Below, piece after piece: positions 37,974 to 40,738 of a DNA stretch of 64,000 nucleotides. Location: the sequence record NC_005859.1, one strand, 5' to 3'. This stretch comes from Escherichia phage T5. A model generated the notes under the pieces. The model ran no database searches, was not told where the DNA came from, and was given only the letters and a program-made list of their open reading frames with translations. Position 1 is the first letter of the stretch, and the number at the start of each line of letters is the position of its first letter. The position numbers and the translations under genes are program-made.

Positions 37974-38002
37974 TGACATTTTCTCCTGGGTAGTGTAAAG
38001 TA
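37974..38002 (+). promoter_or_regulatory. candidate sigma70 promoter of plus-strand accessory operon
   Basis: -35 TTGACA (37974-37979), ~16-17 bp spacer, -10-like TAAAGT; differs from the stereotyped early promoter module. Confidence 0.45.
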
Positions 38003-38063
38003 TATGTTATGGATGAGTGATCAAAGAGACACACATTTTCTATATACTAGGAGGTGTCAAAAA

Positions 38064-39029
38064 ATGACAGAAGAAGTAGCTAATAGTCCTGAGACCGTCG
38101 CTAGCGTTGCAGCAGAACTGCACCGTCACGAGGAATCAGATAAGAAAAAGTGGGAGAAGGTCAGAGCCTACGAAGAAGAACATTGTGAACACGATGATAA
38201 AGATGATGAACATTGTCATAAATATGGAAAACATAAAATGCAAGAACCAGTAAACGTATTTACTAACGGCTTCCCTGGCATGGGTGCATTCCCGGCTAAC
38301 GCAGGTGCTTTCGGTGGTGAAGGTATGGGCCTATTCGGAGCTATCCTAATCGGTGCTCTATTAACAGGCGGATTTGGTGGTTTTGGTAGTTTTGGTCGCG
38401 GTGCTGGCGTTGCCGCTGAAGGAACTGCTGTGGACGCGATCCTTTCTAACCAAGATACTGCAAGTATTCTAGCTGCAATCAACACTACTCGTACAGAAGC
38501 TAACCAGGGCACTGGGGCTGTTCTAAGCGCAGTAAACGGTGTGGGAGCTGCTCAAGCTGCTAGCACTCAGCAAGTTCTGACTACTATCTACGGTACAGGT
38601 GCTAATCTGTCAAACCAGATCTGTGCTGAAACTCGTAACGTTATTCAGGGTCAGTTCGATCTTTCTCGTCAGATGGATCAATCTTTCGCTGCTAACCAGA
38701 TCGCACGTGCTCAAGATAAGTTTGACTCTGCTCAGATTGCTTTCCAGCAGTCTATTCAGACTAACAACCAGTTTGCCGCTGTTCAGGCTCAGATGTGTGC
38801 TAACCAGAATGCTATAGAACGTCAGCTTGCTGAATGTTGCTGTGAGCTTCAGACTGCGATCGCCGGTGTAACTACTGCGCGTATCCAGGACGAACTGAAT
38901 GAATGCCGTCTGCGCGAAGCAATCGCTGCAGGTAGCGGTGCAAATGGTCAGGTAATCAACCAAATCGCTGTAAGTCTTGGTGCTATCACTCAGACTCTGG
39001 CTGGTCTGCAGGCTAAACTGCCGGCTTAA
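38064..39029 (+). CDS. glycine-zipper membrane protein with C-terminal Ala/Gln-rich region
   Basis: 322 aa from ATG 38064 (SD AGGAGG, 9 nt spacing); acidic His/Cys N-terminus, Gly-rich hydrophobic segment, Q/A-rich repeats, CCC motif. Confidence 0.6.
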   Translation: MTEEVANSPETVASVAAELHRHEESDKKKWEKVRAYEEEHCEHDDKDDEHCHKYGKHKMQEPVNVFTNGFPGMGAFPANAGAFGGEGMGLFGAILIGALLTGGFGGFGSFGRGAGVAAEGTAVDAILSNQDTASILAAINTTRTEANQGTGAVLSAVNGVGAAQAASTQQVLTTIYGTGANLSNQICAETRNVIQGQFDLSRQMDQSFAANQIARAQDKFDSAQIAFQQSIQTNNQFAAVQAQMCANQNAIERQLAECCCELQTAIAGVTTARIQDELNECRLREAIAAGSGANGQVINQIAVSLGAITQTLAGLQAKLPA

Positions 39030-39050
39030 AATTAAGGGGAGGAGTCCATT

Positions 39051-39467
39051 ATGAGTAAATATGGTTTTGTAAACAACGGATTTAATCAACAAATGGGCTC
39101 CCAGCAGCCCGTTCCGGGTCTGGATAATCCTTACCTACAACAGTTGCAACAGCGTTTAGCAGAAGCGCAACAGATGCAGCAACAACTCCAGCAAAACCCT
39201 GGAAGTGTGAGTCCTATGCAAATGATGCAGCAAATGAGCGGGCAGTCGCAAATGCCTCAACAAATGCAGCAACAGGTGCCTCAGCAGCAAGTTCAGCAAC
39301 AAACCCAACAACCGCAGGTTTCTGCGGAAGGACAGGCAGTACTAGCCCTTTTCGAAGATTTCGCAAAGACAGAGGATGGGAAACAGCTTGTATCACTTAT
39401 GGGTAAGTTTAATAGCTTCTGCCAAAGCCAAGTTGCAAAAGCTCAAAATGGTGATAATAGCTCCTAA
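39051..39467 (+). CDS. glutamine-rich low-complexity protein
   Basis: 138 aa, ~30% Gln; SD GGGGAGGAG upstream. Confidence 0.55.
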   Translation: MSKYGFVNNGFNQQMGSQQPVPGLDNPYLQQLQQRLAEAQQMQQQLQQNPGSVSPMQMMQQMSGQSQMPQQMQQQVPQQQVQQQTQQPQVSAEGQAVLALFEDFAKTEDGKQLVSLMGKFNSFCQSQVAKAQNGDNSS

Positions 39468-39476
39468 GGAGGAATT

Positions 39477-39671
39477 ATGTGTTGCAGAAAATCTGTTTCG
39501 TGCTGCCCAATGCCTGTAGCACGTTGTTGCTCTCCAGCAATGTTTACACAAATACCGGCGTTCAATCCCTTTGCCTTTAAGCCTACTCTTATCCTGCCCC
39601 CTAGAGTAGATTTTCAGTCAAGATTGGCCTCCCGTATGGGTGGTTGCTGTAATAAGAGTATATGGTTCTAA
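39477..39671 (+). CDS. Cys-doublet-rich small protein
   Basis: 64 aa; four CC doublets; SD AAGGAGG 6 nt upstream; followed by strong terminator. Confidence 0.45.
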   Translation: MCCRKSVSCCPMPVARCCSPAMFTQIPAFNPFAFKPTLILPPRVDFQSRLASRMGGCCNKSIWF

Positions 39672-39688
39672 AGAACCAATAATAAAAA

Positions 39689-39720
39689 CCCCTAGTCGAA
39701 AGACTTAGGGGTTTTCTTTT
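39689..39720 (+). terminator. strong intrinsic terminator closing the plus-strand operon
   Basis: 9-bp GC-rich stem (CCCCTAGTC / GACTTAGGGG, one bulge), GAAA tetraloop, then TTTTCTTTT. Confidence 0.8.
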
Positions 39721-39740
39721 ATCTTAAATACAGAAAAGCC

Positions 39741-39772
39741 CTGCGCTCTCCAGGGAACACAGGGCTTACTTC
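39741..39772 (-). terminator. candidate terminator after SPFH gene
   Basis: stem AGCCCTG...CAGGGCT downstream of minus-strand stop at 39791; A-tract on plus. Confidence 0.45.
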
Positions 39773-39790
39773 GAATATTACATGTGGGTA

Positions 39791-40738
39791 TTACTTGTTA
39801 CGCATATCCATAATCATCTGGCCATCGTAACCAGTGCCAACTACTGTTTGCGGTACACCACCTTGATATTTCTGAGCACGAATCATTTCAACTTCTAGTT
39901 GTTTCCAGCGAATCATCTCAGGAGTAATAGTACGTTGCAGAGCGGCGTTAGCTTCGGCTTCTTTGTTAGCTGCGTACAGTTTAGCATCTGCATCACGTTC
40001 GTTTGCAATAGCCTGGTTGTTACGAGCTTCACGATCTGCTTCTGCTTGTTTAACCTTCTGCTGTGCTTCTTGTTCAACACGAGCCAATTCAGCTTTCGCA
40101 GCATTAACTTGTTCTTCACGAACTTTGGTATTCTGTACCTGTTCCATGATTACAGGCGGCAAAGTAATATCCTGAAGGAACACTTGCTTAACTGTGTAAC
40201 CATAAGGGCGTGCGTACTCTTCAACTTCCTGCTGAATTGCAGTTTGCAATTGTGCTTGAATTTTAGCATCAAACAAATCTTGTGCTTTAGGTACAGACTT
40301 ACCAAACTCACGAATAGTAGATAGTAATTTCTCAGTTACATACTTATCTAGAGCCTGATCCTGAGTACCTGCGTTAATACGGTTAATCGGTGCCTTAGAA
40401 CCATCAAACTGCAACATAACAGTCAGGTCAACAGTGGATTTAAACTTATCCTGGCTGGGAACCTGAAGTTTATCTAATTTTACAGCAATATCTTTTGTAC
40501 TAAAAGTATCGAAAGATGCAAATGGGTTTACAAGATGGAAACCAGGTAATACTGGGTTAGGATCTACTTTACCCAGAAATGTTTGGGTTTTAACCGTACC
40601 ATCAGAAACAATAGTATATGAATTAAAAGCTAGGATTAAACCTGCTAAACCAACCACAGCACCAATACCCCAACGTTTAATAGTGCGAACTACTTTTTGC
40701 TCAGAAGTCAGTTCTTTCATATTTTTAGTATTAAACAT
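39791..40738 (-). CDS. SPFH/band-7 (prohibitin/HflC-like) membrane protein
   Basis: 315 aa; N-terminal TM helix, SPFH-like core, long Ala/Glu/Gln coiled-coil C-terminus. Confidence 0.7.
   Translation of the reverse strand: MFNTKNMKELTSEQKVVRTIKRWGIGAVVGLAGLILAFNSYTIVSDGTVKTQTFLGKVDPNPVLPGFHLVNPFASFDTFSTKDIAVKLDKLQVPSQDKFKSTVDLTVMLQFDGSKAPINRINAGTQDQALDKYVTEKLLSTIREFGKSVPKAQDLFDAKIQAQLQTAIQQEVEEYARPYGYTVKQVFLQDITLPPVIMEQVQNTKVREEQVNAAKAELARVEQEAQQKVKQAEADREARNNQAIANERDADAKLYAANKEAEANAALQRTITPEMIRWKQLEVEMIRAQKYQGGVPQTVVGTGYDGQMIMDMRNK

Follow-up and report, generated by a model that had tools for sequence, protein, structure and literature searches.

A portable three-gene accessory cassette antisense to the tRNA gene region of bacteriophage T5

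Phage morons are autonomous accessory transcription units, of which lambda bor/lom and HK97 gp15 are examples, and in lambdoid phages the slot between Q and the holin gene is the position of Stx and other morons. Here we describe a unit of this kind, the T5p075-T5p076-T5p077 cassette (genes A, B and C), in Escherichia phage T5, the window analysed being a stretch of 64,000 nucleotides from sequence record NC_005859.1. In common with morons the cassette has its own promoter and terminator and is placed between backbone operons, here in antisense orientation, and it is dispensable, patchy among close relatives and common to unrelated phages. It differs from morons in having three co-conserved genes rather than one, in occurring mostly in virulent phages (T5-like and N4-like) and in that its products have no characterized relatives. 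Near-absence from bacterial chromosomes indicates that it is not a typical lysogenic-conversion gene. The cassette is a phage moron in kind, with components unlike any characterized exclusion, lysis or anti-defence system.

Two other described systems bear directly on the T5 locus. NfeD is the usual partner of SPFH proteins, and the cassette resembles SPFH/NfeD operons in that a genuine Band-7 gene lies beside it, but none of its products is NfeD-like and the SPFH gene is distributed independently of it. The T5 tRNA-rich region, or 'anti-defence island', encodes a tRNA-Tyr that defeats retron Eco7 and a tRNA-Lys that defeats PARIS, and T5p074 has been identified as Rad, an anti-retron factor (PMC10644984; bioRxiv 10.1101/2023.03.15.532788). 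Like these three factors, the cassette is within an approximately 8-kb deletable island, where it adjoins Rad; unlike them it is encoded on the other strand, is predicted to have a multi-protein, membrane-associated architecture and has no reported anti-defence activity.

Gene organization of the cassette

Over positions 37850-40900 the window matched GenBank AY734508, an entry for the phage T5 tRNA gene region, at 100% identity and AY587007, the complete T5 genome, at 99.9%. A first-pass annotation had proposed an accessory operon here consisting of three plus-strand open reading frames (ORFs), and their coordinates were confirmed exactly, with gene A (T5p075, 321 aa) at 38064-39029, gene B (T5p076, 138 aa) at 39051-39467 and gene C (T5p077, a 64-aa micro-protein) at 39477-39671. 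The operon reading was also upheld, the genes forming an autonomous unit with its own promoter and terminator. As claimed for strong Shine-Dalgarno (SD) sequences, each gene is preceded by an AGGAGG-type site (TAGGAGGT for A, GGGGAGGAG for B and TAAGGAGGA for C). Upstream of A, the predicted promoter P12 (37954-38028, plus strand) comprises a -35 TTGACA at 37973-37978, a -10 TAAAGT at 37996-38001 and an upstream A/T tract (AATTTTTAAAG). A consensus scan gave 10/12 matches for TTGACA-17-TAAAGT at 37973-38001, and P12 is indeed unlike the neighbouring early promoters at 41608 and 37301, which are TTGCTA-17-TATAAT. The strong terminator expected at the other end corresponds to ter1 (39678-39720, both strands), a bidirectional intrinsic terminator annotated in AY734508 and BF23. 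Its hairpin (39685-39715) has a free energy (dG) of -18 kcal/mol and a z-score of -4.0, is flanked by an A-run and a U-run and is directly followed by UUUUCUUUU. The cassette is opposite to all its neighbours, with 23 of 23 tRNAs and every flanking ORF on the minus strand.

Much of this organization was already recorded. Depositors' labels in AY734508 and the BF23 tRNA-region entry include promoter P12, the bidirectional terminator ter1 and, as hypothetical proteins of 321, 138 and 64 aa, T5p075, T5p076 and T5p077, together with a major single-strand nick just 3' of the cassette, the Band-7 gene T5p078, tRNA-Arg, a stable RNA 'RNAX' and promoter P16-17. Since ORFs, promoter and terminator are all present in these 2004-era records, they are not new. 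Reference T5 assigns none of the three genes a known function, as all are annotated there as hypothetical, and no paper on T5p075/076/077 or T5.075-077 was found in the literature. What is new, with no earlier description found, is the conserved portable three-gene unit in at least five phage lineages, the phage-only family of rod proteins bearing a Cys-Cys-Cys (CCC) motif to which A belongs, and the corrected reading frames in phage KPP23. The genetic description of the cassette can be given with high confidence.

Existing records also contain a number of irregularities. In AY587007, A is split into ORF072 and ORF073 (38160-38950), which is consistent with the 0.1% sequence difference from AY734508, and B (38972-39388) is named 'cAMP-dependent protein kinase catalytic subunit (kapc)'. 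The kinase name, which recurs in a scattering of T5-like records, was rejected as B contains no kinase domain. The 64-aa gene C is without annotation in most T5-like GenBank/RefSeq records (the majority of tblastn match rows), being either missing or mis-framed, and in the metagenomic T5-like contig L030 (5447-5575) it is shortened to 42 aa.

Distribution and mobility of the cassette

When 50,697 phage records were searched by tblastn, genes A, B and C were found in 221, 221 and 220 records respectively, with strict co-occurrence. The surrounding DNA from Rad to the SPFH gene was present in approximately 442 T5-like records, of which approximately 221 have A-B-C, and so about half of T5-like phages are without the cassette. 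In HildyBeyeler (Bas33) the absent segment is T5 38035-39719 (a jump from approximately 38034 to 39720), corresponding to exactly the three genes plus ter1, and a P12 remnant is still present; in mar004NP2 it is T5 37838-39727 (a jump from 37837 to 39728), again with loss of ter1 along with the cassette genes. Both phages retain Rad and the SPFH gene. The cassette is also within the classical st0 deletion (AY734508 annotation) and is absent from the sequenced BF23 stock (PMC10644984). T5Mos, carrying a deletion of 30661-38625 (T5 coordinates of PMC11464382), is viable, and this deletion ends near the 5' end of the cassette and probably removes P12 and the start of A. These data demonstrate that the cassette is a discrete and dispensable unit.

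The ratio of nonsynonymous to synonymous substitution (dN/dS), calculated among T5, BF23, SP15, EC100, STK8t, UTK0010 and KPP2018, was 0.10-0.16 for A; for B it was 0.10-0.29, apart from a value of 0.69 in one near-identical pair, and C was almost invariant. These low values and the near-invariance of C show that A, B and C are real genes under purifying selection, not chance ORFs. For the same phage pairs, synonymous divergence (dS) of B and C was 0.02-0.19 (96-100% nucleotide identity) compared with 0.43-0.51 for A and 0.34-0.71 for the SPFH gene, and A contains a mosaic stretch of 60-88% identity at 38100-38640. The low dS of B and C suggests that the 3' half of the cassette has spread recently by recombination, or that extra constraint acts at the nucleotide level.

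The same three genes in the same order were found on unrelated phage backbones. In the Pseudomonas phage KPP23 (locus L004, AB910392.1, 62.8 kb) A is a 320-aa protein whose C-terminal half is 53% identical, and B has 143 aa. A-B-C order was also observed in L009, an N4-like contig with a virion RNA polymerase gene, and in two different lambdoid phages, L010 (4346-10073) and L036 (4131-8700), where it is located between the Q antiterminator gene and the holin-lysozyme-Rz genes. The distant T5-like contigs L011 and L038 carry A-B-C, and L037 carries A-B, the contig ending at that point. Counterparts of C were identified in KPP23, L009, L010, L011, L036 and L038. Control elements are conserved too, as the P12 motif is kept in L011 and L038 despite an A identity to T5 of only 46-48%, and the promoter common to T5 and L011 has the form AATTTTTAAAG-N5-TTGACATTTT...TGTAAAGTA; ter1 is conserved in L011 and terminator-like hairpins are located 3' of the KPP23 and L011 cassettes. 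In every locus found the cassette is antisense to its neighbours. The three genes move together, as one block in the order A-B-C, among phages with unrelated backbones. In the lambdoid phages its antisense position between Q and holin means that Q-modified late transcription must cross it to reach the lysis genes, and this antisense read-through implies transcriptional interference at late times.

In KPP23 two small genes were found to be annotated in the wrong frame. The C peptide (60 aa, MCCNQPVPQCC..., MCCNQPVPQCCGPF...GRCCKKFDCC) is encoded at 5969-6151 on the plus strand, overlapping the annotated 'ORF072' (5971-6165), and a 48-aa Zn-ribbon protein (MAKCVVCGAKLEICPECG...) is encoded on the minus strand at 4299-4445, overlapping 'ORF075' (4316-4501). 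A divergent gene for a Zn-ribbon protein with a basic tail (CPxCG...CPECG...YCxPxCRQRK) is directly upstream of the cassette in KPP23 and also in L009 (4756-4911), L010 (4744-4917) and L036 (5761-5919), all on the minus strand, with pairwise E values of 1e-10 to 1e-19. The gene is absent from T5 and L011, and a T5 partner of this type was rejected as no tblastn match below E 0.37 was obtained in the window. The Zn-ribbon protein is a possible dedicated regulator of the cassette.

Products of the cassette and their families

The first-pass description of the three products, namely an acidic His/Cys N-terminus in A, a Gln-rich B and four Cys-Cys doublets in C, was accurate in each case. A (phrog_8119, 'unknown function') has a net charge of -14 and consists of a helix (residues 12-43), an acidic His/Cys linker, a Gly-rich hydrophobic segment (residues ~70-120) and a helical rod of approximately 200 aa bearing an invariant Cys258-Cys259-Cys260. 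It is the sole cassette product with a segment of transmembrane (TM) grade; this single segment, with core residues 89-107 and a KD19 of 1.72, is internal, behind a 65-aa charged domain, and given its presence the membrane-acting role suggested earlier was judged plausible. The sequence includes GGFGGFGSFG and GLFGAI. With regard to a glycine zipper, the family consensus GGLLIGALLGGG fits GxxxGxxxG and T5 A itself has A93xxxG97xxxT101; A gave no match to the Pfam Gly-zipper family. Monomer models of A made with AlphaFold2 (AF2) had a mean pLDDT of 42 with a 28-sequence alignment and 58.5 with a 49-sequence alignment. In the latter the helix at 12-43 was confident (pLDDT ~90) and residues 162-318 formed one continuous helix of approximately 155 residues. 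A single long continuous helix is the usual AF2 rendering of an obligate coiled-coil oligomer. As the model is essentially one long helix and a Foldseek search of it against the PDB gave 0 matches, the fold of A was left without assignment.

B (phrog_7894, 'unknown function') is 28% Gln. Its conserved parts are an N-terminal 'QLQQRLAEAQQMQ' helix and a C-terminal 'ALFEEFxKTEDGKQLVxxxGKFNxFCQ' motif, with a variable Q/P linker between them, and its relatives occur only in phage lineages that carry A. C is basic (+7) and rich in Pro (12%) and Phe, starts Met-Cys-Cys and contains 8 Cys arranged as four doublets, with motifs CCPMP, CCSP and GGCC; no PHROGs match was obtained for it. Neither B nor C was found to have a hydrophobic, signal-like or export segment (maximum KD19 of C, 0.85), and both are presumably cytoplasmic for this reason. 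No match to Pfam or NCBIfam was obtained for A, B or C, and PDB sequence searches recognized none of the products. Together with the blank PADLOC result and the 'unknown function' PHROGs labels, this agrees with the earlier statement that the genes match no named phage module. The exclusion, toxin-like or envelope-remodelling roles offered alongside that statement are speculative.

A forms 30 clusters in a 5.8-billion-protein collection, and an exhaustive profile search gave approximately 320 family representatives at E<=1e-3. The majority are 'short-type' proteins of 240-300 aa that are without the acidic N-terminal domain and retain the Gly-rich hydrophobic segment, an N/Q/A/S/T-rich helical region, the invariant CCC and a conserved C-terminal tail, the CCC motif being invariant in T5-type and short-type relatives alike. 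Some A proteins, for example P0014, have His-rich N-terminal linkers. Among 185,579 species-representative genomes a single A-family match was found, on a 2-kb contig of a metagenome-assembled genome (MAG). The 5,426 complete E. coli genomes and the plasmids searched yielded none. When IMG/VR and metagenomes were scanned with a divergent T5-type alignment, the result was nothing, or T5-like contigs only. The A family is essentially phage-only.

Short-type loci occur on other phage backbones, often close to tail-fibre and lysis genes, with an amidase, holin or lysozyme gene within approximately 2 kb in L023, L025 and L027, and they contain no C gene. T5-type loci were the only ones in which C or the acidic N-terminal domain of A was observed. 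A remote relative of the N-terminal domain, P0100, is followed by a B-like small partner, and Q/P-rich ORFs are near some short-type genes. Short-type A is always followed by a protein of approximately 97 aa, 'MASPITV...TNYDF' (MASPITV..QN.G..Y.K..PS.TNYDF), located at 4693-4986 in L020, 4770-5072 in L023, 4484-4783 in L024, 4675-4983 in L025, 4629-4916 in L027 and 4573-4866 in L028. Short-type A and this partner make up a second cassette, distinct from A-B-C, that has the CCC-rod protein in common with it. In L020 and L023 the partner is followed by a protein of approximately 180 aa, the L020 copy matching Pfam Ferritin at E 6e-4, which is below the family cut-off, and a small helix-turn-helix (HTH) gene is often upstream of short-type A.

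In PDB profile searches with three family alignments, the top match was influenza HA2 (E 0.055, 0.008 and 0.003, not significant). The alignment extends from the fusion peptide into the long helix, and the GLFGAI of T5 A is identical to the start of HA2. In a shuffle control with an H3 HA2 sequence, the score was above 1000/1000 shuffles for two profiles and not for the T5-type-only profile. HA2 and A share a Gly-rich hydrophobic peptide followed by a long helix. However, in T5-type proteins the segment is internal and shows no sign of exposure by cleavage, and there is no receptor-binding subunit and no Foldseek match. The likeness is treated as a weak architectural resemblance and not as homology, and it may be convergent or partly compositional.

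Neighbouring genes and possible roles of the cassette

Convergent with the cassette, as the first-pass annotation had described, is the 315-aa SPFH/Band-7 gene T5p078 (39791-40738, minus strand), which is context and outside the cassette. Its product matched Pfam PF01145 (Band_7) at E 9.4e-18 (65.3 bits against a Pfam cut-off of 23.6 bits), has an N-terminal TM segment at residues 25-43 (KD19 1.79) and is a bona fide Band-7 protein; its dN/dS of 0.005-0.07 indicates far stronger constraint than on the cassette. The RefSeq name 'lipoprotein' (phrog_200) was rejected since the protein has no cysteine, and the AY734508 name 'putative membrane protease' is unsupported. The depositors annotate T5p078 as co-transcribed with tRNA-Arg and RNAX from P16-17. 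The gene has its own terminator hairpin at 39736-39767 on the minus strand (dG -23.1 kcal/mol), separate from ter1. An annotated major T5 nick at 39746/39747 (the 32.6% site) falls inside this stem-loop (...GGAGAGCGCAGGG...), between the two convergent terminators.

On the other side, Rad (T5p074, a TOPRIM protein matching Pfam Toprim_2) is encoded at 37279-37848 on the minus strand, also outside the cassette. In Epseptimaviruses (STK8t and UTK0010; L016 1-935 and L017 1-934) a NadR-type nicotinamide-nucleotide adenylyltransferase/ribosylnicotinamide kinase gene is upstream of the cassette instead of Rad, so that the accessory gene next to the cassette varies from one T5-like genus to another. 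Rfam identified only tRNAs over 37000-42000, including one at 37089-37163 (minus strand), annotated as tRNA-Ile2/Met, that is not in the ARAGORN list. An ARAGORN 'tRNA-Ser(act)' at 41431-41504 (minus strand) falls within the annotated stable RNAX and is a pseudo-tRNA in AY587007.

We tentatively read T5p075-077 as a mobile accessory cassette whose products form a membrane-associated A-B-C complex with its site of action at the infected-cell envelope, a reading that taken as a whole falls somewhat short of probable. In this proposal, P12, as a sigma-70 promoter, would drive the three tightly packed genes up to bidirectional ter1, the unit having been inserted antisense in the tRNA/anti-defence island. 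The three products would make one membrane-associated complex, and this part of the proposal is fairly likely. A would supply the glycine-rich membrane segment together with an alpha-helical rod, long and oligomeric, in which Cys-Cys-Cys serves as a staple or a ligand site. B and C would attach to A from the cytoplasm, the acidic N-terminal domain of A being a plausible docking site. Docking at this domain is suggested by its restriction, with C, to T5-type loci and by complementary charges, the domain being acidic and C +7. Most speculatively, the complex may alter the infected-cell envelope in a way that protects infection under natural conditions, and such a change might exclude competing phages, blunt membrane-acting host defences or modulate lysis. 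A role in exclusion or counter-defence is possible, though rather doubtful. The cassette would be unneeded for growth in laboratory hosts and would act independently of the SPFH gene. More speculatively still, the A family might be an unrecognized phage-restricted class of membrane-remodelling or fusogenic proteins, armed or regulated in the T5-type cassette by the B adaptor and by C and exchanged by virulent and temperate phages as a plug-in module for inter-phage exclusion or for neutralizing membrane-targeting abortive-infection effectors; we consider this improbable.

A number of points weigh against the proposed envelope complex. The complex itself is suggested by co-occurrence only; AF2 leaves the Gly-rich segment of A disordered, and the hydrophobic core of A is Gly-rich and is short in many relatives. 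Membrane insertion and topology are predictions, and by the positive-inside rule T5-type and short-type A would be oriented in opposite directions. PADLOC returned no match for A, B or C. In published screens of island fragments, activity against retrons was seen only for F6-F8 and against PARIS only for tRNA-Lys, the cassette content of the fragments not being verifiable from the text. No experimental or expression datum on A, B or C was found in the searchable literature, and the only T5-like RNA-seq found there used Bas33, which is without the cassette.

Among the alternatives, a cytoplasmic counter-defence module, in which the products inhibit or decoy host immunity and the hydrophobic segment of A is incidental or serves oligomerization, is unlikely, although several features are consistent with it. 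The cassette is accessory, mobile and phage-only, is in the 'anti-defence island' beside Rad, or beside the NadR-type NAD-salvage gene in Epseptimaviruses, and B and C are without export signals; T5n, which is without the island, plates worse on AVAST 2, with no responsible gene named (bioRxiv 10.1101/2023.03.15.532788). Published screens, however, credit only tRNA-Tyr, F7, Rad and tRNA-Lys, three genes with a TM-grade segment and a 200-aa rod are unlike the typical small soluble anti-defence protein, and elsewhere the cassette adjoins lysis or replication genes and not known anti-defence genes. This proximity to lysis genes, with both lambdoid cassettes abutting holin-lysozyme-Rz and the short-type genes of L023, L025 and L027 also near lysis genes, would instead fit a lysis-associated fusogenic or timing accessory, with A as a spanin-like or class-I-fusion-like rod built from a fusion-peptide-like Gly-rich segment and a coiled coil with Cys staples. 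Together with a small Pro-rich Cys partner, such a rod would influence how the envelope is disrupted or when the holin is triggered. By analogy, a hydrophobic segment joined to a long Cys-bearing helical rod, and a small Pro-rich Cys partner, would recall the Rz/Rz1 spanins, which the lambdoid copies also resemble in lying beside lysis genes, and HA2 was top in three profile searches with the shuffle control positive for two of three. The analogy with spanins is incomplete, as C has no signal peptide, lipoprotein signal or lipobox (its MCC, MCGC or MSCNC start is not part of a hydrophobic leader), the hydrophobic segment of A is internal (89-107) and not N-terminal as in an i-spanin, no Pfam Rz/Rz1 match was obtained and there is a third, Gln-rich gene. 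Moreover, an Rz gene (PF03245) is already present in L010 and L036, the cassette has its own promoter and never shares a strand with the lysis genes, and the T5 copy is in the early region, away from lysis genes. The HA2 likeness is below significance and is lost with the T5-type-only profile, and the Foldseek search was blank. Overall, a lysis accessory is improbable.

Less probable again is a self-assembling scaffold cross-linked by Cys or metal, in which the rod of A, with a Gly/Phe-rich head, would resemble an intermediate filament, C would cross-link through its 'high-sulfur' CCxP motifs and B would contribute a Gln-rich matrix, together giving a filament, lattice or condensate. The argument for it is compositional, from the GGFGGFGSFG and Cys-bearing helix of A, the CCPMP, CCSP and GGCC of C and the 28% Gln of B, to which may be added the His-rich linkers of A proteins such as P0014 and the ferritin-like neighbour in short-type loci (E 6e-4, below cut-off). 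The analogy with keratin and keratin-associated proteins is purely compositional, with no homology, and a reducing cytoplasm would not allow disulfides; we regard this alternative as very unlikely. The partnership with the SPFH gene implied by the first-pass annotation, in which cassette and convergent gene would be one membrane-scaffold system, is largely refuted by distribution and has scarcely any probability left. The genes converge in T5 within the same deletable island and both A and the SPFH protein have a TM-grade segment, but the distributions are independent in both directions. HildyBeyeler, mar004NP2 and approximately half of T5-like phages retain the SPFH gene and have no cassette, and the cassette is without an SPFH neighbour in four other phage lineages (KPP23, the N4-like phage and the lambdoid phages among them). 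Pfam matches provided no NfeD among A, B and C. Because promoters and terminators are separate, constraint differs and distribution is independent, the convergence is best read as adjacency and not as a system.

The significance of the cassette lies in where it is and how it is kept. The deletable tRNA region of T5 has recently yielded the counter-defence factors Rad, tRNA-Tyr (retron Eco7) and tRNA-Lys (PARIS), and the cassette is the largest uncharacterized coding block of that region and the sole one transcribed against the grain. A, B and C define protein families without a characterized member, and the exact natural deletion boundaries, together with cassette-less relatives (Bas33/HildyBeyeler), make function directly testable. 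Retention of the cassette as a unit in Demerecviridae, an N4-like phage, lambdoid phages and a Pseudomonas siphovirus suggests a portable function useful in very different infection programmes.

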